NCBI GenBank assembly: GCA_027483995.1
Contig: JAIXTK010000116.1
Span: 1 to 54,181 of the forward strand
DNA: 54,181 bases
Source: Acetobacteraceae bacterium
Lineage (GTDB): Bacteria > Pseudomonadota > Alphaproteobacteria > Acetobacterales > Acetobacteraceae
Reading direction: 5' to 3'
In this document: piece after piece, positions 5,782 through 43,912 of the stretch
How positions within the stretch are numbered: the stretch's first letter is position 1
How the letters are laid out: each line of letters opens with the position of its first letter
Translations under genes and position numbers: made by a program
The notes under the pieces: model-generated
Database searches by the model: none
Told to the model about the DNA's origin: nothing
Seen by the model: only the letters and a program-made list of their open reading frames with translations

Positions 5782-5915
5782 TAAGCAAGGCTCTTCTTTT
5801 TCTGAAGAAAAAGAAGCAAAAAGACTTCATTCGCTTGCACCCGCGCTGGGCACCTAGCGCGGGCGCAAGAGAATAAAAGTTTTTTGGTTCTTTTTTTCAA
5901 AAAAGAACATTCTTA
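5782..5915 (+). repeat. AT-rich nested-palindrome intergenic element, copy 1 (complete, MITE/REP-like)
   Basis: Layout: TTAAGCAAGG, then hairpin A CTTCTTTTTC-TGAA-GAAAAAGAAG (5793-5816), CAAAAAGACTT, GC-rich centre, AAGTTTTTTGG, hairpin B GTTCTTTTTT-TC-AAAAAAGAAC, ATTCTTA. It fills the gap between two co-directional minus-strand genes. Confidence 0.85.
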
Positions 5916-6716
5916 CGCTGCCTTGGCTTGCGCCTTCTGCGCATAAGCTAACAAAGCCCCGTCCTCGCACGGCTCGATCGGCGTGAAATCCCGGTGCGCG
6001 ATGTATTCCGCCCGGGTTGGCGTGCGGATGTAGTTGGAACACGCGTTCAGCGTCAGGTACACGATCTTGCGCGGATACGGCGTGATGTTGCCGGCCGAGC
6101 CGTGCACCAGGTTGCCGTGGAACATCAGCAGCCCGCCCGGCTTGCCCACGGGCGTCACGATCCCGCCCTCGGCGACCAGCTTCGTCACGGTCGCCTCGTC
6201 CAGCGTCCAGAGCGGGTAGGAGGTGGTGCTCTTGTCGTGCCCGGCGGCGAGCGTGCCGTGGGTGTGGCTGCGCGGCACCAGCATCAGCGGGCCGTTGATG
6301 TGCATCACCTCGTCCAGGAACACCGCGATATTCATGGCCCGTGGCTCCGGCATGCCGTCATCACGTGCCCAGGTGCCGTAATCCTGGTGCCACTGCCACA
6401 CGTCCCCGGTGAAGGCCGACTTCGCGTTGATCTTGAACTGGTGCATGTACAGCTTCTCGCCGAACACCTGCTCGATCGGGCTGATCATGCGCGGGTGGCG
6501 CCCCAGCAGCCCGAAGGCCTCGTTGTACTGGTGCGCGGCGAAGGCCGTGCGGGGCGCGCCCGATTTCTCGCGCCAGATCTCCGGCCGGTTCGCGGCGTAG
6601 ATCGCCTCTGCCTCGTCGCGCAGAACCGCCACCTCCTCCGGGGTGAACAGCTCCGGCAGGAACAGGTAGCCCTCGCGGTGGAATGCCTCGATCTGCTGGG
6701 CCGAAAGCTCCATCAC
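5913..6716 (-). CDS. PhyH-family Fe(II)/2-oxoglutarate dioxygenase, ectoine-hydroxylase-like
   Basis: ORF 5913..6716. WQWHQDYGTWARDDGMP resembles the EctD/PhyH His-x-Asp signature; distal His in FHGNLVHGS. Confidence 0.8.
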   Translation of the reverse strand: MMELSAQQIEAFHREGYLFLPELFTPEEVAVLRDEAEAIYAANRPEIWREKSGAPRTAFAAHQYNEAFGLLGRHPRMISPIEQVFGEKLYMHQFKINAKSAFTGDVWQWHQDYGTWARDDGMPEPRAMNIAVFLDEVMHINGPLMLVPRSHTHGTLAAGHDKSTTSYPLWTLDEATVTKLVAEGGIVTPVGKPGGLLMFHGNLVHGSAGNITPYPRKIVYLTLNACSNYIRTPTRAEYIAHRDFTPIEPCEDGALLAYAQKAQAKAA

Positions 6717-6795
6717 GCCCTCCCTTGGTGCGTTTCGTTTTGCCCCCTACCCTTGCGGTCCCCGCACGGCCGGGTCAAGCAGGAAGGAACATGCC

Positions 6796-7950
6796 ATGGC
6801 AGCGCGCACCCTCGGTGTCGGCATCCTCGGCTGCGGCAACATCTCCGGCATCTACCTTCGCAACATGAAGCTGTTTGCCGGGCTGGAACTGCGCGCCTGC
6901 GCCAGCCGCACCCTGGCCAGCGCCCAGCGCGCCGCCGAGCCGCTCGGCCTGCCCGCCGTCACGGTGGCAGAGCTTCTGGCCCGGGAGGATATCGACATCG
7001 TCGTGAACCTCACGCCGCCCAACGACCACGCCGCGCTGACCCAGGCCGCGCTGGAAGCCGGCAAGCACGTCTATTCCGAGAAACCCCTCACGGTTTCCGT
7101 GGCGGATGCACAGCGCCTGATCAGCCTGGCCGGGAGCAACGGCCTCGCGCTGGGCTGCGCGCCGGATACGTTCCTGGGCGGCGGCCACCAGCTCTGCCGG
7201 CAGATCATCGACTCCGGCCGCATCGGCCGCGTTCTCGGCGGCACCGCGATGGTGCTGTCGCACGGCATGGAGCACTGGCACCCGGACCCGGAATTCTTCT
7301 TCAAGCCCGGCGGTGGTCCGGTGCTGGATCTCGGCCCCTACTACCTCACCGCGCTGGTGAACCTGCTTGGCCCCGTCGCCCGCGTTCAGGCCCATGGGCA
7401 GATCGGCCTGGCCGAGCGACACGTCACCGCTCCGGGGCCTCGCCATGGCCAGCGCATCAAGGTGGAAACCCTCACCCACGTGACCGCCCTGCTGGATTTC
7501 GCCGCCGGCCCGCAACTGACCCTCATGGCCAGCTGGGATATCTGGAAGAACGGCCACCCGCCGATCGAGCTGTATGGGACCGAAGGCTCGCTGCGCGTGC
7601 CGGATCCCAACTGGTTCGGTGGCACCCCCGAAGTGTCGGACCGCGACGGCCCCTGGCAGGCGCAGGAGAGCCACGCCATGCCCTTTGGCGCCAACAACTA
7701 TCGCGGCGCGCACTGGCCCGCGGAACGGCCGGACCAGGCCAACTACCGCGCGCTGGGCATCGCCGACCTCGCCGCCTCCGTTCGGGCCGGCACCCCGCAC
7801 CGCAGTTCCGCCCATCTCGCCTTGCACGTGCTGGAGGTGATGGACGCCATCCTGCAGGCCTGCGCCACCGCAGCCCCCATCACCCTCGCCCCTACCCTTG
7901 GCCGCCCTGCGCCCCTCGGTGCAGCGGAAGCCGCCGCCCTGCTTGCCTGA
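6796..7950 (+). CDS. Gfo/Idh/MocA family oxidoreductase
   Basis: ORF 6796..7950. N-terminal GILGCGNISG Rossmann motif and the EKP motif (VYSEKPL). Confidence 0.85.
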   Translation: MAARTLGVGILGCGNISGIYLRNMKLFAGLELRACASRTLASAQRAAEPLGLPAVTVAELLAREDIDIVVNLTPPNDHAALTQAALEAGKHVYSEKPLTVSVADAQRLISLAGSNGLALGCAPDTFLGGGHQLCRQIIDSGRIGRVLGGTAMVLSHGMEHWHPDPEFFFKPGGGPVLDLGPYYLTALVNLLGPVARVQAHGQIGLAERHVTAPGPRHGQRIKVETLTHVTALLDFAAGPQLTLMASWDIWKNGHPPIELYGTEGSLRVPDPNWFGGTPEVSDRDGPWQAQESHAMPFGANNYRGAHWPAERPDQANYRALGIADLAASVRAGTPHRSSAHLALHVLEVMDAILQACATAAPITLAPTLGRPAPLGAAEAAALLA

Positions 7951-7999
7951 CCGCGCCCGCCGCCGCACAGTCGCCCCGCGAACCAACCAGGAAACGCCC

Positions 8000-8596
8000 A
8001 TGAAACTCGCCTTCTCTGCCGCCAGCCCCTATGTCCGCAAGGTCATGGCGGTTGCCATCGCCCGCGGTGTCGACAGCCGCATCGAAAAGGCCAAGATCGG
8101 CACCACCGACCCCGCGCTGTTGGTGATGAACCCGCTCTCCAAGGTGCCCTCCCTGGTCACCGATGACGGCATGGCGCTGTATGACAGCCCGGTGATCTGC
8201 GAATACGTGGACAGCCTCGGCACCGGCCCCGGCACCTTCCCGGCCCCTGGCCCGGCCCGCTGGAACGCCCTGCGCCTGGCTGCCCTGGGCGACGGCATCA
8301 TGGATGCCAGCCAGCCGCGCCGCCGCGAACTCGCCCTGCCGCAGGATGAAGGCCGCACCACCTGGATCGAGCAGCAGAAGGGCAAGGTTGTCCGCTCGCT
8401 GGACGCGCTGGAAGCCGAAGCCGACACGCTGGGCCACCTCGCCACCTACGGTGAGATCACCGTTGCCTGCGCGCTGGGCTACCTGGATTTCCGCTTCCCG
8501 CATGAGCCCTGGCGCCCTGGCCACCCCAAGCTGACCGCCTGGTACGAGAAGGTCGTCGCCCTGCCCCCGATGGCGCAGACGATGCCGGTGGGCTGA
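8000..8596 (+). CDS. glutathione S-transferase family protein
   Basis: Inside ORF 7898..8596. Start moved to ATG 8000 (MKLAFSAASPYVRKV...). Thioredoxin-like N-domain with KVPSL. Confidence 0.8.
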   Translation: MKLAFSAASPYVRKVMAVAIARGVDSRIEKAKIGTTDPALLVMNPLSKVPSLVTDDGMALYDSPVICEYVDSLGTGPGTFPAPGPARWNALRLAALGDGIMDASQPRRRELALPQDEGRTTWIEQQKGKVVRSLDALEAEADTLGHLATYGEITVACALGYLDFRFPHEPWRPGHPKLTAWYEKVVALPPMAQTMPVG

Positions 8597-8690
8597 AGAA
8601 CGACGTCATCCGTTTGCGCCGGGGTTCGCTCCGGCGCAAACGAATGAAGGTTTTTTGGTTCTTTTTTTCAAAAAAGAACGCGCTTGCTTA
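8594..8690 (+). repeat. AT-rich nested-palindrome element, copy 2 (left part truncated)
   Basis: TGAAGAA-CGACGTCAT remnant, central hairpin GTTTGCGCCGGGG..CTCCGGCGCAAAC (8612-8641), GAATGAAGGTTTTTTGG, hairpin B, GCGCTTGCTTA. Lies between convergent genes. Confidence 0.8.
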
Positions 8691-9965
8691 CTTCGGCCGC
8701 GCCAAGGCCGCCGCCCATTTATGCTTCCAGTAGATCATCTGCGCCGGCGCCCGCCCCAGGGGCCCGCCCGCGAAGGGCAGCCCGAAGCGGCGGAACATCT
8801 GCCAGCGCGTATCGCCTTCGGTGATGGCCGACGCCAGCAGGGTGCCGGCCATGGTGGTGATCCCCATCCCCAGCCCGCCGAACCCCGTCGCCACCCAGCG
8901 GCCGGCCCCGATCGCGCCGATCATCGGCATGCGATGGCGCAGGTACGGCATCATCCCGCCCCAGGCGACCTCGACCTTGACCTTGTCGAGGTCCGGGTAG
9001 AACCACGCCATGTCCCGCCGCAGGGATTCCGTGAGCCAGGCATGGCTGGGCTTGAACGCCGCCACGCGGCCGCCCCAGAGCAGGCGCCCATCCTCCAGCG
9101 GCCGGTAGTAGTTGGTGGCGAAGCTGCGGTCGGCCAGCGAGATCTTGGTGCCGATCACTCGCGCCAGGTTCTCGCCGAGCGGCTCCGTCACCATGGTGTA
9201 GGTCGGCACCGGAATGGTGGCCATCGCCACCTTCCAGTCCAGCAGCCCGACATAGCCGCCGCCGGCCATCACCACCTGGTCGCACACCACCCGCCCGCGC
9301 GGCGTGCGCACCACCTGCCGCCCGCCCTGGCGGGACAGGCCCGTGGCCGGGCTTTCCTCATGCAGCCGTGCCCCCAGCCGGGCGGCGGCGGCGGCCGTGC
9401 CGCGGGTGAATTTCAGCGGGTTGAGGCTGAGGGCGGCCCTGTCCAGGATGCCATCGGAATAGCGCGTGGTGGCCAGGGTTTCGCGCACGGTCTGCCGTGA
9501 CCACACGATCAGGTCGCGGCCGAAGTCGCGGGCCATGAAATCGGCATAGCGGGCCATTTCGCCGTCATCCTCGGCCATGGCGAAGATCAGCCGGCCATCG
9601 ACCATCTCCCCCACGTCGATGCCGTACTGGGCGATGCGCCGGCGGATCAGCAGCAGGGCCTGAAGCGTCAGGCCATAGAGGTCGCGCGCATCCGGCAGCC
9701 CCACCTGGGCCACCAGGTCTTCCACCCGCGTGGGGTAGCCGGGCACCACGAAGCCGCCATTGCGGCCGGAGGCGCCCCAGCCGACGCGCTTGCGTTCCAG
9801 CAGCACCACGCTGCGCCCGCGTTCGGCGAGATCGAGTGCGGTGGCCAGGCCGGCCATGCCGCCGCCGATCACGCACACCTCGGCCTGCACCTCCCCATCC
9901 AGCGCCGGGTAGCGCTGCGCGGTGTCCACGGTGCGGGCGTAGTGGCTGTCCTCGTACGCGGTCAC
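8688..9965 (-). CDS. FAD-dependent oxidoreductase (gamma-glutamylputrescine oxidase / DadA-like family)
   Basis: ORF 8688..9965. Dinucleotide-binding motif [20 protein letters not shown]. Confidence 0.85.
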
Positions 9966-11005: not shown

Positions 11006-11007
11006 CG

Positions 11008-11313
11008 TCAGTGCGTCCAGTTCTCCGCCCGGCCGGCGCGGAAATTGTCGCTATAGGCCTTGGGCTTGATCACCTGCGCCTTCGGCAGTTCCACCACATG
11101 CGCAATGCCCTCGCGCTGCGCATAGGCCACCGCGTCCTCGCGGCTCTGGAACACCAGCTTCACCTGGGCCTGGGTGTCGGCGCTGCCGATCCAGCCCATC
11201 AGTGGGTCCGCCCGGCGTGCCTCGGCCGGCTCGAACTCCAGCACCCAGTCATCGGTCTTCGCCTTGCCGGACTGCATGGCATTCTTGGGGATCTGGTAGA
11301 TGCGCGCCCGCAT
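11008..11313 (-). CDS. ETC complex I subunit conserved-region protein (NDUFS4-like)
   Basis: ORF 11008..11319 (GTG). ATG 11313 is preferred because GAGGAG lies 5 nt upstream. Sequence [29 protein letters not shown]... is typical of the alphaproteobacterial NDUFS4 homologue. Confidence 0.8.
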
Positions 11314-11339
11314 GGCCACTCCTCGTCACAAACTCGATC

Positions 11340-11416
11340 TGGTCGGGGCGGCCGGACTCGAACCGGCGGCCTCGTGTACCCAAAACACGCGCGCTACCAG
11401 GCTGCGCCACGCCCCG
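11340..11416 (-). tRNA. tRNA-Pro (anticodon UGG)
   Basis: The reverse complement folds as a cloverleaf. Acceptor CGGGGCG/CGCCCCG, D arm GCGC-AGCCTGGTA-GCGC, anticodon arm CGTGT-TTTGGGT-ACACG, T arm GCCGG-TTCGAGT-CCGGC. Encoded ACCA 3' end; 77 nt. Confidence 0.93.
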
Positions 11417-11466
11417 TTCCCAGAACGGGCCGGAAGCTAGGCGCGAGACCCGCCCAGCGCAAGCAT

Positions 11467-13954: not shown

Positions 13955-14072
13955 GAAGCGGTCTCCCTTGGCGGAACGGGGGCGGCGCCCCAGCTATATG
14001 GGCCGGGCGTCGGTTGCACGCCCTCCCCCCTATAAGTAACTTCCGCCCCGCGCAACGGAGAACGGCAGCAAC

Positions 14073-14699
14073 ATGGACATGTCCGGCGAGCGGCGGATCA
14101 CCGCGCCGCGCGAAAAGGTGTGGGCCGCCCTCAATGACCCCCTGGTCCTCAAGGCCTCCATCCCCGGCTGCGACACGCTGGAGAAGCTTTCGGAGACCGA
14201 GCTGAAGGCCACCGCCTCGATCAAGATCGGCCCCATCGCCGCCAAGTTCGCCGGCAAGGTGCAGCTGCTGGATCTCGATCCCCCCAACGGCTACCGCATC
14301 GAGGGTGAAGGCCAAGGCGGCGTGGCCGGCTTCGCCAAGGGCGGCGCCAGCGTGCGCCTCGTGCAGGACGGGGCCGATACCATCCTCTCCTACGACGTGA
14401 AGGCCAATGTCGGCGGCAAGATCGCCCAGCTCGGCGCCCGCCTGATCGACGCCACCGCCAAGCAGATGGCCGACGCCTTCTTCGACCGCTTCGCCGCCCA
14501 GGTGGCCACCGCGGAACCCGAAGCCGCCGCCGAAGCCACGCCCGCACCCGCCGCCGCCCCGGCCCCAGCCCCGGCCGCCCCCACCATCTCGCTGCTGGAT
14601 CTCATCCCGCGCGAGCCCGGCGGCCTGCCGATCACCGCCTGGATCGGCATCGCGCTGTTCATCCCCGTGGCCCTGCTGCTGCTCAAGGGCTTCTTCTGA
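14073..14699 (+). CDS. coxG: CoxG-like SRPBCC protein with C-terminal Ala/Pro linker and TM anchor
   Basis: ORF 14073..14699. The N-terminal 150 aa are CoxG-type (MDMSGERRITAPREKVWAALNDP...). The tail is ...[14 protein letters not shown]... followed by a hydrophobic helix. Confidence 0.8.
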   Translation: MDMSGERRITAPREKVWAALNDPLVLKASIPGCDTLEKLSETELKATASIKIGPIAAKFAGKVQLLDLDPPNGYRIEGEGQGGVAGFAKGGASVRLVQDGADTILSYDVKANVGGKIAQLGARLIDATAKQMADAFFDRFAAQVATAEPEAAAEATPAPAAAPAPAPAAPTISLLDLIPREPGGLPITAWIGIALFIPVALLLLKGFF

Positions 14700-15598
14700 T
14701 GACCCTCCCGGCCACCGTCGCCGACACCGTCGCCCTGCTCGAAGCCGGCGGCTACGTCGCCGACACCGCACTCGCCACCACCGTGCACCTCGCCATGACC
14801 ATGGAACGCCCGCTGTTCCTGGAAGGCGAGCCCGGCACCGGCAAGACCGAGATCGCCAAGGTGCTCGCCGGCGGCCTCAACCGCCGCCTGGTCCGCCTGC
14901 AATGCTACGACGGCCTGGACCTCGCCGCGGCAGCCTATGAGTGGGACCACGCCCGCCAGCTCATGGCCATCCGCATCGCCGAAGCCACCGGCACGGCCGA
15001 CCGCCAGTCCCTCGCCAGCGACATCTACGCCCGCGAATACCTGCAATCGCGCCCGCTGCTCTCGGCCATCGACCCGGACCAGCCCCCCGCCGTGCTGCTG
15101 ATCGACGAGCTGGACCGCGCCGACGAACCCTTCGAGGCCTTCCTGCTGGAGCTGCTGGCCGACTTCCAGATCACCGTTCCGGAATACGGCACCATCCACG
15201 CCAAGACGAAGCCCGTGGTGGTCCTCACCTCCAACCGCACCCGCGAAGTGCACGACGCCATCCGCCGCCGCTGCCTCTACCACTGGGTGGACTACCCCGA
15301 CGCCAAACGCGAACGCGCCATCCTCGCCCGCAAGGCCCCGCACGTGCAGCCCAGGCTGGCGGCGGAAATCGTTGCCTTCGTGCAGAAAATCCGCGGCCAG
15401 GACCTGTTCAAGCAACCCGGCGTCGCCGAAAGCATCGACTGGGCCGGCGCACTCACCTACCTCAACCAAACCGAACTCACCCCCGGCGCGGTCGATGAAA
15501 CCCTGGGCGTGCTGCTGAAATACCAGGACGATATCGCCAAGATCAAAGGCGCGGAGGCGGCGCGGTTGGTGACGGAAGCCAAGGCGGCGGCGGACTAA
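14699..15598 (+). CDS. coxD: MoxR-family AAA+ ATPase (CoxD-like)
   Basis: ORF 14699..15598. Walker A GEPGTGKTE, Walker B LLIDELDRA. TGATG overlap with coxG. Confidence 0.9.
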   Translation: MTLPATVADTVALLEAGGYVADTALATTVHLAMTMERPLFLEGEPGTGKTEIAKVLAGGLNRRLVRLQCYDGLDLAAAAYEWDHARQLMAIRIAEATGTADRQSLASDIYAREYLQSRPLLSAIDPDQPPAVLLIDELDRADEPFEAFLLELLADFQITVPEYGTIHAKTKPVVVLTSNRTREVHDAIRRRCLYHWVDYPDAKRERAILARKAPHVQPRLAAEIVAFVQKIRGQDLFKQPGVAESIDWAGALTYLNQTELTPGAVDETLGVLLKYQDDIAKIKGAEAARLVTEAKAAAD

Positions 15599-15753
15599 GG
15601 AAGGACTTCTTTTTGTGAACAAAAAGAAGCAAAAAAACTTCATGACCTGCGCTGGGGATAACCTCCCTCGCGCCCGTGGAGTCACGCCGCCGCCATCAGC
15701 AAACGAACAAAGTTTTTTTGCTTCTTTTTGTTCACAAAAAGAAGGCCTTGCTG
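15596..15753. repeat. AT-rich nested-palindrome element, copy 3 (both ends A-type, perfect 35-bp terminal inverted repeats)
   Basis: 15606-15640, CTTCTTTTTGTGAACAAAAAGAAGCAAAAAAACTT, is the exact reverse complement of 15710-15744. Each TIR contains a 10-bp hairpin. It fills the coxD-coxE gap. Confidence 0.9.
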
Positions 15754-16959
15754 ATGTCTGACCTGACGGCAAAAGGCCTCCTGTCCCTCAACATCCTCAA
15801 CTTCGCCCGCCTCCTGCGCCGCGCCGGCCTGCCGATCGGCCCCGCCGACATGCTCGCCGCCCAGGATGCCATGACCCGCATCGACATCGGCCGCCGCGCC
15901 CAGGTGCATACCGCCTTGCGCGCCACCATGGTGCATCGCCACGAGCACCAGGACATGTTCGACCAGGCCTTCAAGCTCTACTGGCGGGCCAAGGAGAACA
16001 ACGAAGTCCTGGAGATGCTGGACAAGCTGGCCGGCCCCAAGCCCCCGCCGGAGAAGGCCCCGCCCGGCTCCCGCCGCCTCGCGGAGGCCCTGGCCGCCAA
16101 GCAGGAGAAGCCCACGCCGCCGGAGGAAGCCCGCGAGGAGATCGACGCGGTGCTGACCGTCTCCGAGCGTGAGCACCTGCAAACCATGGATTTCGAGGCG
16201 ATGAGCGCGGCCGAGATCGAGAACGCCAAGCGCGAGATCGCCCGCCTGCACCTGCCGCTGGACCAGAAGCGCACCCGCCGCACAAGGCCCGACGCCAACG
16301 GCCCGCGCATCGACCTGCGCGCCACCATCCGCGCCAGCTTGCGCACCGGCGGCGAGATCTTCGACCTCGCCCGCACCCGCAAGGTCACCAAGCCGCCGCC
16401 CTTGGTGGTGCTGTGCGACATCAGCGGCAGCATGGCCCGCTACGCCCAGATATTGCTGCACTTCCTCCACGCCGTGGCCAATGATCGCGACCGCGTGCAC
16501 ACCTTCCTCTTCGGCACCCGCCTCTCCAACATCTCCCGCCAGCTTCGCCACCGGGACCCGGAAGTGGCCTTCCAACTCGTCTCGCAGATCGTGCCCGACT
16601 GGTCCGGCGGCACGCGCATCGGGGAGGCGCTGGCCGCCTTCAACCAGCAATGGTCCCGCCGCGTGCTGGGCCAGGGCGCCATGGTGCTGCTGGTGACGGA
16701 TGGGCTGGATCGCGATGGCGCGGCCGGCCTGTCGGAGAACATGGAGCGCCTGCACAAATCCTGCTCCCGCCTGGTCTGGCTCAACCCGCTCTTGCGCTGG
16801 GATGGGTTCGAGCCGAAATCGCAGGGCATCCGCGCGATGCTGCCGCATGTCGACGAATTCCGAACCGTGCATAATCTCGCCAGCCTGCGCGCCCTGGTCG
16901 CCTCGCTCTCGGCACCGCCCGATTTGCGCGCGATGGACCGATGGAGGATAGCCGCATGA
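15754..16959 (+). CDS. coxE: VWA-domain protein (CoxE-like)
   Basis: Inside ORF 15676..16959. ATG 15754 is chosen because the upstream codons are repeat-derived (KVFLLLFVHKKK). MIDAS motif VVLCDISGSMARY. Confidence 0.85.
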   Translation: MSDLTAKGLLSLNILNFARLLRRAGLPIGPADMLAAQDAMTRIDIGRRAQVHTALRATMVHRHEHQDMFDQAFKLYWRAKENNEVLEMLDKLAGPKPPPEKAPPGSRRLAEALAAKQEKPTPPEEAREEIDAVLTVSEREHLQTMDFEAMSAAEIENAKREIARLHLPLDQKRTRRTRPDANGPRIDLRATIRASLRTGGEIFDLARTRKVTKPPPLVVLCDISGSMARYAQILLHFLHAVANDRDRVHTFLFGTRLSNISRQLRHRDPEVAFQLVSQIVPDWSGGTRIGEALAAFNQQWSRRVLGQGAMVLLVTDGLDRDGAAGLSENMERLHKSCSRLVWLNPLLRWDGFEPKSQGIRAMLPHVDEFRTVHNLASLRALVASLSAPPDLRAMDRWRIAA

Positions 16960-19662: not shown

Positions 19663-20119
19663 CTGGCGCCCCATGGCACCCGAAGACCTCGACTCCGTCG
19701 AGCGCCTCGGCAACACCATCCACCAGGCCCATCCCGAACGCCCGGAAGTCTTCGCCGAACGCCTGCGCCTCTGCCCCGAAGGCTGCCACGCGCTTGGAAA
19801 CCTCGACGGCTACATCATCAGCCACCCCTGGACGCTGGGCAGCCCGCCACCGCTCGATACCCTCCTCGGCGCCCTGCCCGCGCAGCCAGACACCTGGTAC
19901 ATCCACGACCTGGCACTGCACGAACGCGCCCGCGGGACCGGCGCCGCACCGGCCATCGTGGCTCAGTTAGCCGCCGCCCATGCCCTGCCCCTATCCCTGA
20001 TCGCCGTCGGCCGCTCGCCCGGCTTCTGGGCGCGGCAAGGCTTTGTTCCGGCCACGCTGCCGCAGGGCAAGCTCGCCTCCTATGGGGACGGCGCGACCTA
20101 CATGGTCAGAAGAAAGTAA
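19652..20119 (+). CDS. GNAT-family N-acetyltransferase (putative)
   Basis: ORF 19652..20119. Acetyl-CoA motif-A-like HERARGTGAAPAIV. 11-nt overlap with the upstream gene. Confidence 0.65.
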   Translation: MSPSWRPMAPEDLDSVERLGNTIHQAHPERPEVFAERLRLCPEGCHALGNLDGYIISHPWTLGSPPPLDTLLGALPAQPDTWYIHDLALHERARGTGAAPAIVAQLAAAHALPLSLIAVGRSPGFWARQGFVPATLPQGKLASYGDGATYMVRRK

Positions 20120-20241
20120 GAGTCTTCTTTTTCTGAAGAAAAAGAAGCAAAAAGACTTTACTCGTTCGCCGGCCATTGCGGCCGAGGCGCAGGTCCCAAA
20201 AGTTTTTTGGTTCTTTTTTTCAAAAAAGAACCGCTTGCTTC
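20117..20241 (+). repeat. AT-rich nested-palindrome element, copy 4 (complete)
   Basis: GTAAGAGT, hairpin A, CAAAAAGACTTTA, GC-rich centre (CGCCGGCCATTGCGGCCGAGGCG), AAAAGTTTTTTGG, hairpin B, CGCTTGCTTC. Lies between convergent genes. Confidence 0.85.
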
Positions 20242-20243
20242 CC

Positions 20244-20483
20244 TCAGGGGCACTCACACCCAGGCGTAGGCCCGCTTTCGGCCTTCACCACATGGTGGTC
20301 GATCCACTCCGCCACCAGCCGCCGCGCCTCGTTCACCGAGGCCTCCGGGTGATGGATCCGGTACAGCGTCGTGCAGGCCCGGAACGCCGAGGGGTCGTCA
20401 TTCCCCAGCGCCGTCAGGTCCCGATACGCCGTCACCACGGCCCGCTCGCAGTTGCGTGCGATATGGCTGAAATCCCGGCCCAT
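20244..20483 (-). CDS. hypothetical small protein (79 aa)
   Basis: ORF 20244..20483. High GC3 and a GGAG SD before the ATG. No family recognised. Confidence 0.55.
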   Translation of the reverse strand: MGRDFSHIARNCERAVVTAYRDLTALGNDDPSAFRACTTLYRIHHPEASVNEARRLVAEWIDHHVVKAESGPTPGCECP

Positions 20484-20495
20484 GCCTCGCTCCTA

Positions 20496-26135: not shown

Positions 26136-26681
26136 TTACACGCGCTCGCTGGCCGCAATCGCCACCCGGCACCCCGCCTTGATCGCCGCCGACAGCAGCC
26201 GATATCCCGGCGCCTGTTCCGCCTCATGCGCCAGCCCGATATCGCGATGCTCCAGCTCCTCCTCCCGGAATCGCTCGATCACCTCGCGCAGCTCCGCCTC
26301 ATCCTCCCCCAGGGAAGCGGCCTGCGCCGCATAGTGCTCGTCGATCGCCTCTTCCACCGCCACCGTGCAGGCCATCGCCGCCCGCTCGCCCAGCAGCGCC
26401 GTCGCCGCCCCCAGCGCGAACCCGGCCAGGTGCCAGAACGGCAGCAGCGCCGTCGGCCGCACCCGCCGCCGCGCGATCATGGCCGCGAAGGTATCCAGGT
26501 GAACCTGCTCCTGCGCCTGCATGTGCCGGATCAGGTCGCCCTTCGGCCCCCGCCCCAGCACCGCCAGCTGCCCCTGGTAGATGCGCTTGGCCCCGTATTC
26601 CCCGGCATGATCCACCCGGATCATCCGCGCCAGTTTCGCCCGCCGCGCCCGGTCCCCCGGCAACCCGCCCATCCCAGCCAT
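26136..26681 (-). CDS. coq7: demethoxyubiquinone hydroxylase Coq7 family
   Basis: ORF 26136..26714. Di-iron carboxylate motifs (DHAGEYGA, QAQEQVHL, VEEAIDEHY, REEELEHRD). ATG 26681 gives a 1-nt TGATG overlap with the dsbB-like stop; the longer start at 26714 is also possible. Confidence 0.85.
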   Translation of the reverse strand: MAGMGGLPGDRARRAKLARMIRVDHAGEYGAKRIYQGQLAVLGRGPKGDLIRHMQAQEQVHLDTFAAMIARRRVRPTALLPFWHLAGFALGAATALLGERAAMACTVAVEEAIDEHYAAQAASLGEDEAELREVIERFREEELEHRDIGLAHEAEQAPGYRLLSAAIKAGCRVAIAASERV

Positions 26682-27266: not shown

Positions 27267-27896
27267 ATGCTGAAACTCTGGGGCCGCACCACGTCCAGCA
27301 ACGTCATGAAGGTCCTCTGGCTGCTGGAGGAACTGCACCTCCCGTACCAGCGCATCGACGCCGGCGGCGCCTTCGGCCAGACCGACACGCCGGACTACCG
27401 CAGCATGAACCCCCTCGGCCTGGTCCCCAGCCTGGAAGACGGCGAGATCCGCCTGTTCGAGAGCAACGCCATCCTGCGCTTCCTCTGCAACGCCCACGCG
27501 CCGGCCACCCCGCTCTACCCCACCGCGCCGGCCGCCCGCGCCCAGGTCGAATCCTGGATGGATTTCCAGCAAACCGCCCAGTCCCGCCCCGCCAGCACCA
27601 TCTTCCTCGGCCTCATCCGCACGCCGCCGGAACAGCGCGACACCGCCGCCATCGCCGCCGCGGTCACGGAACTCGCCCGCATCTGGTCCATCTGCGCCAA
27701 CCAGGCCCAGGGCAAGGGCGGCTTCCTCTGCGGCCCCAGCCTCACCCTGGCCGACATCGCCTTCGCCCCGCATCTGCACCGCTGGTTCCACATGCCCATC
27801 GAGAACCGGCCCGAAGTACCGGGCCTGCGCGCCTGGTACGACCGGATGGCGCCCCAGGCGGGCTTCCAGAAGCACGTCGCGGTCAAGGTGGAGTAA
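27267..27896 (+). CDS. glutathione S-transferase
   Basis: Inside ORF 26226..27896. ATG 27267 is preceded by AGGAGA. MLKLWGRTTSSNVMKVLWLLEEL..., LVPSLEDGE, ESNAILRFL. Confidence 0.85.
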   Translation: MLKLWGRTTSSNVMKVLWLLEELHLPYQRIDAGGAFGQTDTPDYRSMNPLGLVPSLEDGEIRLFESNAILRFLCNAHAPATPLYPTAPAARAQVESWMDFQQTAQSRPASTIFLGLIRTPPEQRDTAAIAAAVTELARIWSICANQAQGKGGFLCGPSLTLADIAFAPHLHRWFHMPIENRPEVPGLRAWYDRMAPQAGFQKHVAVKVE

Positions 27897-27972
27897 GGAA
27901 GCGTCTTCTTTTTCTGAAGAAAAAGAAGCAAAAAGACTTCACTTGTTTGCGCCGGGCCCTCCCGGCGCAAAC
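27894..27972 (+). repeat. AT-rich nested-palindrome element, copy 5 (right part missing)
   Basis: GTAAGGAAGCGT, hairpin A, CAAAAAGACTTCA, perfect 12-bp central hairpin GTTTGCGCCGGG-CCCT-CCCGGCGCAAAC (27945-27972). No hairpin B. Confidence 0.8.
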
Positions 27973-33052: not shown

Positions 33053-33056
33053 TGCG

Positions 33057-37222: not shown

Positions 37223-37302
37223 CGGGCGAGGGCAGCGCGAAACGCGACAGGCGTCAACCTCCGTGGCAAAGTGTCATGACCGAGACGGAGGAGACGAACG
37301 CA

Positions 37303-38052
37303 ATGAGCAAGATCGCACTGGTAACGGGCGGCGGCAGCGGCGTGGGCCGCGCGGCGGCGCTGGCGCTGCTGGGCGCCGGCTGGACCGTGGTGCTGGCCGG
37401 GCGGCGCGCCGATGCGCTGCAGGAAACCGCGAGCCTGGCGGGCACCCAAGGGACCCGCACCCTGTGCGTGCCGACCGACGTGACCCAGCCGGAGGCGGTG
37501 GACGCGCTGTTCGCCGAGATCAAGGCCAAGTATGGCCGGCTGGACCTGGTGTTCAACAATGCCGGCGGCAACGTGCCGAGCACCAATTTCGGCGACTTCA
37601 CCTGGGAGCAATGGACCCAGGTGGTGGCGGTGAACCTCAACGGCTGTTTCCTGATCGCCAACCGCGCCTTCCAGATGATGCGCGACCAGACCCCCCAGGG
37701 CGGGCGGATCATCAACAACGGCTCGATCTCCGCGCACACGCCGCGGCCGGGCTCGGCGGCCTATACCTCCACCAAGCACGCGATCACCGGCCTCACGAAG
37801 GCGATCGCGCTCGATGGCCGCAACTACGACATCGCCTGCGGCCAGATCGACATCGGCAATGCCGCGACCCCGATGACGGCGCGAATGGCCAAGGGCGTGC
37901 CGCAGCCGGACGGGACCACCCGCGTGGAGCCGACCATGGATTCCGGCAATGTGGGCAAGACCATCCTCTACATGGCCGAGCTGGACGCCGACGCGAACGC
38001 GCTATTCGTGGTGGTGAAGGCAAGCAAGATGCCGTTCGAGGGGCGCGGCTAG
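37303..38052 (+). CDS. SDR-family oxidoreductase
   Basis: ORF 37276..38052. ATG 37303 has GGAGGAG 8 nt upstream. [19 protein letters not shown]. Confidence 0.85.
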
Positions 38053-38185
38053 GGAAGCAAGGAAGCAAAGGGGTCACAGAGAACACAGAGGTCCACAGAG
38101 GGGCATGGAGAAGAAAATCACGATCTGCTTCTCTGTGCCCCTCCGTGGCCCTCTGTGTTCTCTGTGACCACTTCGCTTTAGCCTA
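38050..38185. repeat. long imperfect palindromic element spanning stop-to-stop between convergent genes
   Basis: Arms 38063-38113 and 38128-38178 are complementary at 45 of 51 positions. The loop is AAAATCACGATCTG. The arms are built of tandem units ending in CACAGAG. Flanked by TAG (38050-38052) and CTA (38183-38185). Confidence 0.85.
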
Positions 38186-40477
38186 AACGCACAACAGAAC
38201 GGACACCGATTGCCCCGCCGGCACATGCACCGGCGCCCCGCACACCTCGATATCGATCGCGCTCCCCTGCTCGATCTCCAGCGTCGCCTGCGCCGGGTCC
38301 AGCCGCACGCGCAGCCGGCTGCCGTGCCAGTGGAGTGCGAAGGCGAGGCTGGTCCAGGCCGCGGGCAGGCGGGGGTTGAGGCGCAGCGTGCCGGTTTGCC
38401 AGGAGGCGCCGGCGAAGCCGAGCACCGCGGCCTGCCAGACGCCGCCGAGAGCCGCGATATGCACGCCACCGGCGCTGCTGCCGGGCTTGCCCTCCATGTC
38501 CGGCAGGTAGGCCTGGCGGAAGTGGCGCAGCGCCTGGGCGGTATGGCCGAGACGGGCGGCGACCACGGCGTGCAGCGCGGCGCTGAGCGAGCTTTCGTGG
38601 GTGTTGAGGGGTTCGTAGTAGTCGTAGCTGGCGCGCAGCGTTTCCGGTGGGACGGCATCGGGCAGCAGGGCAAGCAGGGCGACCACGTCCGCCTGCTTGG
38701 CGATCTGGGTGTGCTGGGCGCGGCCACGCACCAGGGCGGCGGCCTCCGCCCCCGTGGTGCCGTGCAGATCGACCCGGGGCAGCTGGAAGAAGCCGCGGAA
38801 CTGCTCGATCAGGCCGGTCGCGGGGTCGTGCGGGATCACCAGCGCATCGGCGGCGCGCCGCCAGGCGGCGGGTTCGGCCTCGGCCAAGGCGAGGCGGGTG
38901 GCGAGGGCGGCATGGGCGGCGGGGCGGCGCGCCCGGAGCAGGGCCAGGGCCTCGGCGGCGCTGCGCAGGCAGTGTGCGGCCATGGCGTTGGTGAAGGCGT
39001 TGTCGTCCACCAGCTCATGGTACTCGTCCGGCCCGATCACGCCGGAGATGTGCAGGCTGCCATCGGGCGAAGGCTCGGCGCGGCTGGCCCAGAAGCGGGC
39101 GCAGTCTGCCATGATCTCGGCGCCGGCCTCTGCGAGGAAATCCGTGTCGTCGGTGGCCAGGATGTGGTTCCAGACGGCATAGGCGATATCGGCGGTGATG
39201 TGCTGTTCCTGGGTGCCGGTTTGCACGGGAACGGGAATGCCGTCGGCGCCCAGGATAGTGGGGGGCGTGGCCTCCGCGCCGGTATCGGCGGATTCCCAGG
39301 CGAACATCGCACCCCGGTAGCCCAACGACGCGGCGCGGGCGCGGGCGGCCGGCAGGGTGCGGTGGCGATAAAGCAGCAGGGCGCGCGCCGCTTCGGGCCA
39401 GGTGAGGGTGTAGAAGGGCAGCAGGTAGATCTCGGTGTCCCAGAAGACATGGCCGAGATAGCTGTCCCCGGTCATGGCGCGGGCACCGATGGAAACCGCG
39501 GGGTCGGCGGGGTTGGCCGCGCTGACCAGGTGGTAGGCGGCGAAGCGCAGCGCCTGCTGGGCGCCGGGATCGCCGGCGATGTCCACGGCGCACTCCCGCC
39601 AGCGATCGTCCCAGGCGGCTTCGTGGGCGGCGAGCAGCGCGCGCCAGGGCGGGGCGGCGGCGCGGGCGGCGATGGCGCGCGGGGCCGGATCGTCGGCGCG
39701 CGAATCGGCGCGGGCGGCGGCGACGACGCGGTGGAATTCCATCATCTCGCCGGGCTTGGTGGTCCAGCGCCAGGTGTGGCCGAACGGGGTGTCGGTTTCG
39801 GGCACAAGCTCCGTATCGCCGCGCCGCAGGGATGCCCGCGTGGCCAGCGCCACGCTGTGCGGGGCATGTTCGGCGCGCCAGACCGAGAGGCCGGCCTCCA
39901 GCCTGGCGAGCCCAAGCCCCGTGCCGGCCGGGTCTGGCAGGGCATCGAGCGCGAGGGCGAGCCCGCCCCGGCTGGCCACGATCTGGACCACCTGCAGCGC
40001 CAGCGCCGGGGCGTGGCGGGCGGCGAGGCGCAATGTGCGCAGGTGCAGCACCGTGCCGTCCGCGCATTCGTGGCGCCATTCGGAGAGCAGCAGGCCGCGC
40101 CGCAGGTCGAGCGTACGGGACATGTCGGCCCCCTGGCGCAGGCGCACCAGCGTGCCATCCACCGACAGGCGCAGGCGCAGCCAATCGGGCGCGGGCATGG
40201 CCACGGGGATCGGCGGCTCGATATCCGGCACGTCGAACAGGCCGGCCACGTAGCAGCGCGGCCAGGAGATGGGGCGGAAGGTGGTGATCCAGCTGGTCCA
40301 GAACGCGGCACGGCCGAGATCACGCGCGCCGCGCATTGCCAGCAGGCCATTGGCGGTGGTGAAGCGGGATTCGATATCGGCCTCGCGGGCCGGTTCCAGG
40401 CCATCGGCGTGCATGTGCCAGCCGGGCGCCGGCTGCGCCCAGGCGGGGTCTTCGATCGGGAAGCCGGCATCGTTCAT
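38183..40477 (-). CDS. glycoside hydrolase family 65 (kojibiose/trehalose/maltose phosphorylase-like)
   Basis: ORF 38183..40477. GH65 catalytic-domain signature GHVFWDTEIYLLPFY. About 760 aa, typical for the family. Confidence 0.85.
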   Translation of the reverse strand: MNDAGFPIEDPAWAQPAPGWHMHADGLEPAREADIESRFTTANGLLAMRGARDLGRAAFWTSWITTFRPISWPRCYVAGLFDVPDIEPPIPVAMPAPDWLRLRLSVDGTLVRLRQGADMSRTLDLRRGLLLSEWRHECADGTVLHLRTLRLAARHAPALALQVVQIVASRGGLALALDALPDPAGTGLGLARLEAGLSVWRAEHAPHSVALATRASLRRGDTELVPETDTPFGHTWRWTTKPGEMMEFHRVVAAARADSRADDPAPRAIAARAAAPPWRALLAAHEAAWDDRWRECAVDIAGDPGAQQALRFAAYHLVSAANPADPAVSIGARAMTGDSYLGHVFWDTEIYLLPFYTLTWPEAARALLLYRHRTLPAARARAASLGYRGAMFAWESADTGAEATPPTILGADGIPVPVQTGTQEQHITADIAYAVWNHILATDDTDFLAEAGAEIMADCARFWASRAEPSPDGSLHISGVIGPDEYHELVDDNAFTNAMAAHCLRSAAEALALLRARRPAAHAALATRLALAEAEPAAWRRAADALVIPHDPATGLIEQFRGFFQLPRVDLHGTTGAEAAALVRGRAQHTQIAKQADVVALLALLPDAVPPETLRASYDYYEPLNTHESSLSAALHAVVAARLGHTAQALRHFRQAYLPDMEGKPGSSAGGVHIAALGGVWQAAVLGFAGASWQTGTLRLNPRLPAAWTSLAFALHWHGSRLRVRLDPAQATLEIEQGSAIDIEVCGAPVHVPAGQSVSVLLCV

Positions 40478-41142
40478 GCAGCGGGACCTTGGGGCAGAAG
40501 GACGAGGGCGGCAGGATCATCCAGCGTGGCCACCACACAGGTGGGGCCGGCAGCCAGCAGCGGGGCGGCATCACCCTTGCGGGCCACGGCCAGGCTGGCC
40601 ATGCCGGCAGCGCGTGCGGCGGCAATGCCGGCGGGTGCGTCTTCCAGAACCAGACAGTGCGCGGGGGCCATGCCGAGTTCCGCGGCGGCGCGCAGAAAGA
40701 GATCCGGCGCGGGCTTGCCGTGCGCCACGCCGCGGCCGGAGAGATCGGCGTGGAACAGGCGGGCCAGGTTGGCACTGGCCAGAATGGCCGAGGCGTTCTT
40801 CGAGGAGGACGCGGCAGCGATGCGCAGCCCGGCGGCGCGGGCGGCCTCCAGGAAGCGCACGGCATCGGCGAACACGGTGAAGGCGCCGGCCGCGACCAAG
40901 GCGAGGAAGCGCGCCTGCTTGGCGGCGGCGTAGGCCGCCACCTCGGCCTCGGCCATGATGCCGTGGGCGGCCAGAGCGGCGCGGGCGCCATCGAACCGCG
41001 GCTTGCCGGCGACCAACGCGGCATAGGCAGCTGGGGTGAGCACGGTGCCGGGGTAGCGTTGGGCCAGCGCCTCGCGCCAGGCGCGCTCGTGCGGGGTGTC
41101 GATCACCACGCCGTCGATGTCGACGATCACGGCGGTGATCAA
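40474..41142 (-). CDS. pgmB: beta-phosphoglucomutase-like HAD-IA hydrolase
   Basis: ORF 40474..41142 (TTG start). DIDGVVIDT nucleophile motif and SSSKNA. 4-nt overlap with the GH65 gene. Confidence 0.8.
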   Translation of the reverse strand: MITAVIVDIDGVVIDTPHERAWREALAQRYPGTVLTPAAYAALVAGKPRFDGARAALAAHGIMAEAEVAAYAAAKQARFLALVAAGAFTVFADAVRFLEAARAAGLRIAAASSSKNASAILASANLARLFHADLSGRGVAHGKPAPDLFLRAAAELGMAPAHCLVLEDAPAGIAAARAAGMASLAVARKGDAAPLLAAGPTCVVATLDDPAALVLLPQGPAA

Positions 41143-41269
41143 GGAAGGAAGGCCTTCTTTTTCTGAAGAAAAAGAAGCAAAAAGACTTTTATTTGTTTGC
41201 GCCCGGCCTCCCCGACCAGCAAGCGAATGAAAGTTTTTTGGTTCTTTTTTTCAAAAAAGAACATGCTTA
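41141..41269 (+). repeat. AT-rich nested-palindrome element, copy 6 (complete)
   Basis: AAGGAAGGAAGGC, hairpin A (41154-41177), CAAAAAGACTTTT, centre, GAATGAAAGTTTTTTGG, hairpin B (41241-41262), ATGCTTA. It fills the arfB-pgmB gap. Confidence 0.85.
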
Positions 41270-41683
41270 CTCACTGGGCGGCCGCCGCGCCGCCTTGATG
41301 CCGGAGCGATTTTTTTTCGCGTCCAGGCGCCGTTCCTTGGAGCCGAGCGTGGGCCGTGTGGCGCGGCGCTTGATGGGCACCACCGTGGCGCGGCGGATCA
41401 GCTCGAACAGGATTTCCCGCGCCGCGCTTCGGTTGCGGTCCTGGCTGCGGAATTCCTGGGCGGTGATCACGATCACGCCATCCTGCGTGGCGCGGTGGCC
41501 GGCGAGCTTCAGCAGGCGGATGGCGACATCGTCGGGCAGGTTGGGGGACCGGCGCGCATCGAAGCGCAGCTGCACCGCGGTGCTCACCTTGTTGACGTTC
41601 TGGCCGCCGGGGCCAGAGGCGCGGATGAAGCTTTCCTCCAGCTCGCGCTCATCAAGCTGGATGCGGTGGGTAACGGGGATCAT
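41267..41683 (-). CDS. arfB: alternative ribosome-rescue factor ArfB (peptidyl-tRNA hydrolase, class I RF-like)
   Basis: ORF 41267..41683. GGQ motif ASGPGGQNVNKV and a basic C-terminal tail. Confidence 0.9.
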   Translation of the reverse strand: MIPVTHRIQLDERELEESFIRASGPGGQNVNKVSTAVQLRFDARRSPNLPDDVAIRLLKLAGHRATQDGVIVITAQEFRSQDRNRSAAREILFELIRRATVVPIKRRATRPTLGSKERRLDAKKNRSGIKAARRPPSE

Positions 41684-41686
41684 GGG

Positions 41687-41723
41687 TCTCTCCTGCGGCC
41701 GTTCTACACGACCGCAGGAGAGA
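41687..41723 (-). promoter_or_regulatory. perfect 12-bp hairpin whose 3' arm contains the arfB SD
   Basis: On the mRNA strand: TCTCTCCTGCGG-13 nt-CCGCAGGAGAGA-CCC-ATG. It lies between the SDR stop (41730) and the arfB ATG (41683). Confidence 0.5.
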
Positions 41724-41729
41724 AGGCAG

Positions 41730-42518: not shown

Positions 42519-42587
42519 GGGCGTTCCTCCGCGAAGTTCGTTGAGGGGAGGAAAGCGCAAAGCAGAGCGGTGCGCCAGCCCCGGCGC

Positions 42588-43796
42588 CTAGAGCAGCGCC
42601 AGCGCCACCAGGATGGTCAGCACCGTCAGCGGCGCGCCGGCCATGAGGTAGGTCCAGAAGCCGATCTCCACGCCGCGCGCCCGTGCCCGCTGCACCACGA
42701 TGAGGTTGGCGACCGATCCCACCAGGGTGAGGTTGCCGGCCAGGGTGGCGGTGGCGGCCACCACCGTCCAGGCGCGGGCGGGGTCTGGCAGCGTGGCGAC
42801 GAAGGGCCTCAGCACCAGCACCGCCGGCACGTTGCTGACGATGTTGGAGAGCGCGGCGGTAGCGAGACCCAGCGTGGGCATGTGGTGCGGGCCGAGGCCG
42901 GCGATGGCGGCGATGCGCTCCGGCGTCAGCACCGCGCGTTCCAGCCCCGCCACCACCACGAACAGCCCGGCGAACATCACCAGCAGCGGCCAGTCGATCT
43001 CGGCATAGATGCGCGCGGGCTTCACGCGGCGCGTGGCCAGCAGCACGGCGCCGGCCACCAGCGCGGCCTCGGCCGGCGGCACCCCGGCGAAGAAGGCGGC
43101 GGCCATCAGCAGCGCCACCACGGAGGTCTTGCGCAGCAGCTTGCGGTCGGTGCGCCAGGGCGGCGGCTCGGCGGAGAGGCGCGCGGCTGTCAGGAACTCG
43201 CCGCGCCAGAGCAGGGCCAGCAACGCGATGGTGAGAAACAACCCGATCGCGGCAACAGGGGCCATGCTGGCGGCGAATTGCGCGTAGGGAATGCCGGAGA
43301 GGCTGCCCACGATCATGTTCTGCGGGTTGCCGGTGAGCGTGGCGGCCCCGCCAATATTGGCGGCGAGCGGGATCGCCAGAACATAGGGCACGGGGTTGCG
43401 GCGCAGATGCAGCACGATATCGAGCACCAGCGGCGTCAGCACGATGCAGATCGTGTCGTTCACCAGGAAGGCGCTGAGCACGCCCGACAGCACCACGATG
43501 GCGGCGAGCAGCGGCAGCGGGTGGCGCGCCCGTGCCACGGCCCAGGCGGTGGCGAGCGCGAAGAACCCGGCGAGGCGCAGATGCGCCACCACGATCATCA
43601 TGCCCAGCAGCAGCGCGATCGTGTTCCAGTCGATGGCGCGGTAGGCCGCCTCCAGCGGAATGGCGCCGGTGGCGACCATCAGCGCGCCGCCCAGCAGCGC
43701 GGCGCCGATGCGGTCGATGCGCAGGCCCGGCAGTCGCCCGAAGGCGACCACGGCATAGGTGGCGGCGAAGATCGTGATCGTCAGCACAGGAAGCAT
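42588..43796 (-). CDS. anion permease of the ArsB/NhaD-CitMHS (SLC13-like) superfamily
   Basis: ORF 42588..43859. ATG 43796 is chosen because the upstream codons are repeat-derived (KVFWFFFSKKN). Polytopic membrane protein. Confidence 0.8.
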   Translation of the reverse strand: MLPVLTITIFAATYAVVAFGRLPGLRIDRIGAALLGGALMVATGAIPLEAAYRAIDWNTIALLLGMMIVVAHLRLAGFFALATAWAVARARHPLPLLAAIVVLSGVLSAFLVNDTICIVLTPLVLDIVLHLRRNPVPYVLAIPLAANIGGAATLTGNPQNMIVGSLSGIPYAQFAASMAPVAAIGLFLTIALLALLWRGEFLTAARLSAEPPPWRTDRKLLRKTSVVALLMAAAFFAGVPPAEAALVAGAVLLATRRVKPARIYAEIDWPLLVMFAGLFVVVAGLERAVLTPERIAAIAGLGPHHMPTLGLATAALSNIVSNVPAVLVLRPFVATLPDPARAWTVVAATATLAGNLTLVGSVANLIVVQRARARGVEIGFWTYLMAGAPLTVLTILVALALL

Positions 43797-43912
43797 GTTC
43801 TTTTTTGAAAAAAAGAACCAAAAAACTTTTCTCCCCTGGTGTCCAGGGGCCCCGCCCAAAACGGCTAAAGTCTTTTTGCTTCTTTTTCTTCAGAAAAAGA
43901 AGGCCTTGCTTA
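43790..43912 (-). repeat. AT-rich nested-palindrome element, copy 7 (complete, inverted orientation)
   Basis: The reverse complement reads GTAAGCAAGGC, hairpin A, CAAAAAGACTTTA, GC-rich centre (GGGGCCCCTGGACACCAGGGG), AAAAGTTTTTTGG, hairpin B, ATGCTTCC. It fills the copA-permease gap. Confidence 0.85.

Follow-up and report, generated by a model that had tools for sequence, protein, structure and literature searches.

The described repeats closest to the element reported here are the repetitive extragenic palindromic (REP) sequences, including the bacterial interspersed mosaic elements (BIMEs) and the REP doublets forming hairpins (REPINs). These are short palindromes, mostly arranged as inverted doublets around a spacer, which occur in very many copies and are conserved across a bacterial family (PMC3733652; PMC3116915). 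REP families are located mostly between convergent and unidirectional open reading frames (ORFs), not between divergent ones, at less than 20 bp from gene 3' ends; a stop codon may be furnished by a REP terminus (Di Nocera et al. 2013, PMC3733652), and CGTC-tagged REPs have been reported missing from the Acetobacteraceae (PMC3733652). In Escherichia coli, REPs no more than 15 nt past a stop are reported to stall ribosomes, according to the passage of PMC12306157 that cites Liang et al. 2015. The stretch analyzed here, referred to as the window, comprises 54,181 nt from an Acetobacteraceae bacterium (GenBank assembly GCA_027483995.1, contig JAIXTK010000116.1, positions 1 to 54,181), has a base composition of 69% G+C, and contains seven copies of an AT-rich palindromic element, each of which ends in the TAA stop codon of an adjacent gene.

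The element resembles REPs, BIMEs and REPINs in its inverted doublets around a spacer, its very many copies, its conservation across a bacterial family, and its location close to gene 3' ends between convergent or same-direction genes. It differs from REPs in the AT-rich hairpins within a genome of 69% G+C, in a ragged (NAAG)n tail that lacks a GTAG or CGTC tag, in a supplied stop that is mostly TAA, composed of a native T and AA of the element, and in the lack of a link to a REP-associated tyrosine transposase (RAYT) in the loci examined. On the sequence evidence, the copies would represent a family of non-autonomous palindromic repeats, widespread in the Acetobacteraceae and built like a REP doublet (REPIN) or a miniature inverted-repeat transposable element (MITE). 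Because the supply of stops by REP termini has been published (PMC3733652), the phenomenon is of a known kind, and what appears to be new is the element family, a sharper junction rule and a presumed mobilizing activity. We consider it probable that the family inserted at the stop codon, with T and AA joining to TAA at the junction. The copies and an additional, eighth element are arranged as follows.

Copy 1, 5782..5915, minus strand, complete: in gene orientation, a B-type hairpin, a GC-rich centre and an A-type hairpin. The proximal end gives the TAA (5913-5915) of the PhyH gene 5913-6716(-); the distal end, CTTGCTT followed by AA, precedes a Shine-Dalgarno (SD) sequence AAGGAG and the TTG start of gene 4467-5768(-).
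Copy 2, 8600..8690, minus strand, half element: a centre hairpin (8606-8647) and a B-type hairpin (8658-8679). The end gives the TAA (8688-8690) of the FAD oxidoreductase gene 8688-9965(-).
Copy 3, 15596..15755, plus strand, complete: an A-type hairpin at each end. The TAA (15596-15598) of the CoxD/MoxR gene 14699-15598 consists of the native T and AA of the element; on the far side the native TGA is kept at 15753-15755, within a TGATG that bears the coxE start.
Copy 4, 20117..20246, plus strand, complete: between convergent genes. TAA 20117-20119 ends ORF 19652-20119(+) (GNAT-like), and the right end is flush with TGA 20244-20246 (minus-strand reading) of gene 20244-20492(-).
Copy 5, 27894..27968, plus strand, half element: an A-type hairpin and a GC-rich centre hairpin. 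TAA 27894-27896 ends the GST gene.
Copy 6, 41143..41269, minus strand, complete: TAA 41267-41269 ends the ArfB gene 41267-41683(-). The distal end, CCTTCCT followed by TGA, overlaps the TTG start of the HAD hydrolase gene 40474-41142(-).
Copy 7, 43788..43912, minus strand, complete: TAA 43910-43912 ends the CopA gene 43910-46204(-). The distal end, GAACATGCTT (43788-43800), provides the ATG (43794-43796) of the CitMHS/ArsB-type transporter gene 42588-43796(-).
Eighth element, 38050..38185 (palindrome 38053-38182), plus strand: a different, GC-richer core with 57-nt arms, and tails of the (NAAG)n kind as in the seven copies. The element directly abuts TAG 38050-38052, which ends gene 37276-38052(+); on the other side lies the convergent gene 38183-40477(-) with stop CTA 38183-38185, so that the flanks read TAG...TAG, and the element is 5 nt from that TAG.

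The seven stops had been listed in an earlier note on this DNA, and direct reading of all seven AT-rich repeats bore the list out: each triplet (TAA, or TTA on the opposite strand) is the stop that its ORF meets first in frame, and the G+C of these ORFs, at third codon positions and by codon position, is that of coding sequence. The product names given there agree with Pfam domains in six of the seven proteins (PhyH, DAO, AAA/MoxR, GST, RF-1 and E1-E2 ATPase); the ORF labeled GNAT has no Pfam hit in the window, and its orthologues in two relatives (L125 and L126) carry PF00583. By the ORF calls, TAA is used ten times in the window, seven times at element ends and otherwise at 26136, 30493 and 51594-6, as tabulated before. 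An in-frame TAA in 7/7 copies has p = 4.6e-4 under random frames, and TAA is enriched among element-adjacent stops relative to the rest of the window (Fisher p = 4e-6). The second flush stop of copy 4, the ATG of copy 7 and the eighth element go beyond the earlier list.

The position of the native stops was read from orthologous regions of relatives with 81-97% amino-acid identity to the window. Empty sites, compared for six of the seven copies (all but copy 2) and for the eighth element, come from relatives with 81-94% identity, which are not sister strains; relatives and other loci are referred to by L numbers.

Copy 3, CoxD: empty in L122, L123 and L124, GCC GAC TGATG CCT, with the coxD TGA overlapping the coxE ATG; window, GCG GAC T AAGGAAGG...GGCCTTGC TGATG TCT; same codon, nothing lost.
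Copy 1, PhyH: empty in L140, GCG GCG GCG TGA, with a GTGA start overlap; window, GCA GCG TAA; same codon.
Copy 6, ArfB: empty in L137, ATC GAC TGA; window, AGT GAG TAA; same codon.
Copy 5, GST: empty in L052, GTG GAG TAG; window, GTG GAG TAA; same codon.
Copy 4, GNAT-like: empty in L126, CGC CTC TAA CCT TCA, with convergent stops 3 nt apart; window, AGA AAG TAA ... TCA; same codon, last two codons different.
Copy 7, CopA: empty in L137, CCG GCG GGC TAG; window, CCG CAG TAA; one codon shorter.
Eighth element: empty in L137, TTC TAG CC, with both convergent stops overlapping on CTAG; window, TAG[...]C TAG CC; same codon.

In five of the six tested copies the native stop is found at the codon at which the window gene now ends. 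A distant native stop, which by the earlier note would have refuted the idea, was present in none of the orthologues examined, the native CopA stop being one codon downstream. These comparisons support the view, put forward in the earlier note, that insertion took place at the stop codon itself. The cleanest site is the CoxD junction, where GAC TGATG becomes GAC T AAGG...CCTTGC TGATG. The native stops at the six tested copies are TGA in three, TAG in two and TAA in one, and all seven window copies now end in TAA; since the native stops are mostly TGA or TAG, TAA is not the targeted native codon but is made at the junction. The coxD-coxE junction of L126, a 94% relative, is filled by a different copy, which makes a TAG stop, is flanked by GCTTA on either side and has a centre that does not align; this suggests repeated use of the junction. 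An all-against-all comparison of the flanks of the listed loci gave no further pairs of filled and empty sites, and the PLSDB plasmids contain no empty homologues of two copies from Pseudoroseomonas cervicalis.

The family was followed beyond the window by scanning public species-representative genomes with the hairpin pattern, which gave at least 119 loci; all figures for the family given below hold among the matches listed. These are nearly all from the Acetobacteraceae, including Acidiphilium, Acidocella, Roseomonas/Pseudoroseomonas, Gluconacetobacter, Asaia, Rhodovastum, Endosaccharibacter and many metagenome-assembled genomes (MAGs). The ends are concentrated at gene stops, as in the window. 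The stop lies 5-25 nt before the hairpin in 71 of the 84 modules into which a coding ORF reads, and in three of the 84 the ORF reads through to a TGA in the hairpin loop. Of the classifiable elements, 28 separate genes that run in the same direction and 11 separate convergent genes, and no divergent gene pair has one. Stops away from the elements in the same loci are TGA in 58%, TAG in 30% and TAA in 12% (61/495), whereas TAA accounts for 42/102 (41%) of the stops no more than 45 nt from an element (p = 1.3e-10), and for 28/38 (74%) of those 5-12 nt from a hairpin. On two plasmids of Pseudoroseomonas cervicalis (PLSDB; annotated with PGAP, the Prokaryotic Genome Annotation Pipeline), the coding sequences likewise end just upstream of the hairpins, and the matched element region begins 5-7 nt past the stop.

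The tails show how the TAA is composed. Every one of the 34 tail TAAG motifs that are first met by an incoming ORF is in frame, and the remaining seven tail TAAGs are all downstream of an earlier stop. T before AAG is rare at ends that face gene starts and present where a stop results, so that this T does not belong to the element as a constant feature. At the far junction of tandem copies with a flush TAA, the last tail T is followed by GA, AA or AG in 8/10 cases (copy 1, AA; copy 3, GA; copy 6, GA; L005, AA; L013, GA; L103, AG; L113, GA; L053, AG). The chance expectation for this pattern is 3/16, which gives p = 5e-5 with a partly manual reading of the junctions. The far-end triplets are TGA in six cases, TAA in two and TAG in two, which mirrors the background stop usage, and the near-end triplet is TAA.

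In the simplest description, the junction reads T[AAG ... CTT]RR, where the native T and the AA of the element compose a working stop and the last T of the element, with the displaced purines, re-forms the old stop on the far side. A tail beginning with GA or AG produces a new stop TGA or TAG instead of TAA. The arrangement is consistent with an insertion that separates the T of the stop from its two purines and also with a duplication of 1-3 bp of the stop. Because many target junctions are tight (the TGATG and GTGA operon overlaps and the convergent CTAG), the element would come to lie flush with the genes on both sides, an arrangement that is partly borne out by the copies above, and in some copies the outward end also provides the start codon of the next gene or an SD-like GAAGG. 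The element may be mobilized in trans by an enzyme with a specificity near a T followed by purines, and may be retained near 3' ends where a hairpin just past the stop is tolerated or useful. Possible uses include protection of the mRNA 3' end, a terminator-like function of the GC stem, and a modulation of termination as for the E. coli REPs.

A further proposal, which we regard as possible but rather doubtful, is that an enzyme or host process recognizes stop codons as such and inserts, between the T and the two purines, an element equipped with portable expression signals. These would comprise an inward AAG end that completes the stop and an outward end with an SD-like sequence or an ATG, and would allow the colonization of overlapping junctions (TGATG, GTGA, CTAG) with neither gene inactivated. 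If true, a target specificity that recognizes stops, and a design compatible with such junctions, would be features not described for bacterial repeats. In Mycobacterium tuberculosis, the mycobacterial interspersed repetitive units (MIRUs) were reportedly placed by Supply et al. in 1997 at intercistronic operon junctions, overlapping the stop and start codons of the neighbors. MIRUs are tandem direct repeats with small ORFs, unlike the palindromic doublets of this element.

Several observations weigh against insertion at the stop codon as set out above. The site of copy 7 lacks a 33-nt spacer and three N-terminal codons of the next gene that are present in L137, with a CopA gene shorter by one codon; the two final codons at copy 4 are not those of L126; and copy 1 is followed by 14 extra nt with a new SD that have no counterpart in L140. 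As the empty sites come from 81-94% relatives, loss or later remodeling may have occurred at these sites. The ragged tail boundaries leave the breakpoints ambiguous by 1-3 nt. Exact flank repeats of 5-6 nt were found in 9 cases versus about 4 expected, a weak excess that is no more than suggestive, and a consistent target duplication did not emerge. No transposase, parent insertion sequence (IS) or RAYT is linked to the element in the loci examined, which amount to about 1 Mb around the listed matches.

IS5-family and Tourist/PIF-type MITEs use 3-bp TNA or TWA targets or 4-bp YTAR targets, and acetic acid bacteria typically carry members of the IS1031 group. An IS1031- or IS427-like MITE of the IS5 family, with a TNA or YTAR target, could have produced a 3-bp duplication equal to the stop codon, the proximal copy of which was later converted to TAA by a G-to-A change. 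Identical stop triplets are present at both ends of six elements (TAA..TAA in copy 1 and L005, TGA..TGA in L001 and L114, TAG..TAG in L053 and the eighth element), a match rate of 6/11 as compared to about 25% expected if the first bases of the element were independent of the native stop. Stop-like triplets also occur at both ends of about half of the tandem copies, and the one empty site CTAG, at the eighth element, is a YTAR sequence. The element tails begin with GGAAGG, which we take to resemble the IS5 inverted repeat. The flanks here are, however, often unequal (TAA..TGA): five of 11 pairs are discordant, and in these the proximal copy is always TAA (copies 3 and 6, L013, L113 and L103). 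With TAA at 74% of the closest stops though the native stops are mostly TGA, a repeated directional conversion would be needed. In addition, TAG is not a TNA sequence, and the roughly 1 Mb of loci contains neither an IS5-type transposase nor a parent, full-length element with such ends. We judge this explanation unlikely.

The positions could also reflect selection in place of targeting, the element inserting anywhere and surviving only where a hairpin past the stop does no harm or serves a purpose, such as mRNA 3' stabilization, bidirectional termination or modulation of termination; the spacer would have been deleted later, and an N-to-T change in NAAG would have made the stop. The (NAAG)n tail has a period of 4 nt and places one of three successive units in any frame, so that a single mutation can make a TAA, and three junctions show extra changes or a missing spacer (copies 1, 4 and 7). 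Comparison of four relatives shows unchanged modules around a variable centre, this centre is a GC stem between A- and T-tracts, and E. coli REPs within 15 nt of a stop affect translation, again by the account of Liang et al. 2015 in that passage of PMC12306157. Selection of this kind would be expected to let the stop wander by several codons, yet the new stop is on the exact native codon in 5/6 tested window genes and in both genes at the eighth element. At the CoxD site the insertion is clean and no sequence has been deleted, the GA, AA or AG at the far ends is left without an account, and insertions elsewhere in spacers should be neutral, yet are rare. Selection without targeting is, in our estimation, an improbable origin of the pattern.

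Very improbable, finally, is the mechanism offered in the earlier note, a Tc1/IS630- or Correia-type MITE that inserts at TA with duplication of TA, prefers TAA and TAG stops and regenerates TA+A, since, although such MITEs are alike in size (about 130-160 bp with inverted-repeat arms), in intergenic and operon-junction locations and in ends that can create expression signals, although the copies with a native TAA or TAG stop, which are the only sites that a TA duplication fits (copy 1, L005, L053, L103 and the eighth element at CTAG), can be written as TA[AG...CT]TA, and although TA with the first purine of the element yields TAA or TAG, the native stops of the PhyH, CoxD and ArfB genes are TGA, the CoxD empty site GACTGATGCC has no TA at all, six tandem copies read TGA at the far junction in place of TA, TAA is native only in the GNAT-like gene (TGA in three others, TAG in two), the ends are ragged, and no IS630-type or related transposase is present in the loci examined.

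The element is built from modules that were described with one degenerate pattern. Twelve such hairpins mark the seven window copies, and none was found in 100 shuffles. They are AT-rich, nearly perfect palindromes of 22-24 nt and fall into an A type (CTTCTTTTTCTGAAGAAAAAGAAG) and a B type (GTTCTTTTTTGAAAAAAAGAAC), with CAAAAA(G)ACTT on the inner side of each window hairpin. Five window copies consist of two hairpins facing one another, with a variable GC-rich stem-loop between them, and copies 2 and 5 are half elements with one hairpin and the centre. Across the listed loci, facing modules have an inner distance of 47-79 nt (mode 57-60 nt), a span that reaches 47-113 nt over a total of 34 facing pairs, and singletons occur as well. 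On its outer side every module carries a ragged, purine-rich tail of one to four (N)AAG units, or CTT on the other strand; the outer ends have no GTAG or CGTC tetranucleotide, and GTAAG is found only where an end abuts a stop codon. In L020, L026, L076, L097 and L108, modules directly adjoin other modules and form nested or tandem arrays in place of the usual doublet.

The foot pair of the hairpin is C-G in 129 cases and G-C in 105 of 238, with four unpaired. Hairpin variants are symmetrical and compensatory, with perfect Watson-Crick pairing and no G-T wobble. This pattern suggests that the constraint acts on DNA or on the two strands alike, for example through a cruciform or a site for an enzyme or another protein, and not on a one-strand RNA fold. 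The predicted fold of the elements has three hairpins, with z-scores of -2.6 to -5.4. When copy 6 is compared among four relatives, its modules and tails show no change and one third of the centre columns vary. The centre is a stable GC stem which, whichever strand is read, is preceded by A-rich and followed by T-rich sequence. T-runs start 3-12 nt past this stem, and a scan with the terminator consensus flagged two element-derived sites only; the stem may be described as terminator-like and appears to fall outside the canonical Rho-independent consensus. At the Rfam gathering threshold the element has no match in the window, where only generic hairpin hits well below threshold were obtained.

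Genes that could mobilize the element were sought in the same loci. The intervals of 1.0-1.4 kb that separate some facing modules, and those of 350-1600 nt within all module pairs, contain only ordinary genes. A tblastn search with approximate query sequences of E. coli RayT and IS200 TnpA returned a single RAYT gene, L049 2587-3126. It is 50% identical to E. coli RayT and is flanked by inverted GC-rich GTAG REPs (GTAGGGTGGGGTGC...; L049 2500-3175), and corresponds to a classical REP-RAYT system, which coexists with the AT-rich element in the same MAG. Because these flanking repeats are classical GTAG REPs and not AT-rich modules, this RAYT has no evident link to the element. An insert of about 980 nt in L136 was considered as an autonomous element and discarded, having no transposase-like ORF. 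An analogy to integron attC sites, which contain stop codons, was dropped in view of the scattered positions of the copies, which occur among core genes and in either orientation.

Palindrome-associated elements derived from IS200/IS605 move by HUH single-strand transposition and have subterminal hairpins, asymmetric ends and no target duplication, inserting 3' of a short motif. The element is like them in its subterminal hairpins at both ends and in the lack of a demonstrable target duplication, and the 4 nt before the junction are NAGT in 8/14 cases, a weak motif. It differs in that its two ends are symmetric and in that no Y1 transposase is associated with it in the loci examined. A search of the searchable literature by literal sequence and keywords returned no description of an Acetobacteraceae MITE or REP that matches the element.

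These results extend the published observation that REPs supply stops to the Acetobacteraceae, and provide a base-level junction rule that is now backed by real empty sites. For annotation, elements of this family are expected to turn TGA and TAG stops into TAA; they can also change or remove up to three codons at the end of a gene, and new start codons can arise from them. Should stops be the true target of insertion, the family would lend itself to the study of how gene ends are located by a mobile repeat, and of the effect of a hairpin 5-12 nt past the stop on termination and mRNA stability. Close relatives differ strongly in their load: no trace of the family is present in the 21 kb available from each of L124 and L137, as compared to seven copies in 38 kb of the window, so that copy number shifts fast between lineages. 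This contrast between relatives with none and the window and its near relatives with many copies eases comparative work.

Additional features were noted at individual sites. Between the far end of copy 1 and the downstream TTG start (window 5759-5785) there are 14 nt, AAAGGAGTCTCCAC, with a good SD. The convergent gene 7898-8596(+) has its TGA stop 9 nt ahead of the centre stem of copy 2, and the arrangement of copy 2 is also present in the relative L125. At the site of copy 5, L052 has three tandem GGCGGTCAGTGGACCGCC hairpin repeats after the GST stop (4130-4215). The transporter downstream of copy 7 starts three codons earlier, or differs at its N-terminus, in relatives free of the element; in L134 and L136 (9330-9995 in both), a gene for a 221-aa methyltransferase is located between the CopA and transporter genes, where the window and L135 have copy 7. 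The eighth element is found in L134 and L135 and is absent from L137, and in L136 its site is occupied by about 980 nt of unrelated DNA (15690-16674) that starts with a similar tail (TAG CATGAAGCGAAGCGGG).

Pattern matches also occur on contigs binned as Rikenellaceae, Oscillospiraceae or Clostridia MAGs (L021, L031, L040 and others); such matches outside the Acetobacteraceae may be chance AT-rich matches or mis-binned contigs. The sole Rfam match in the window at or above the gathering score is a minus-strand tRNA gene at 11343-11416.

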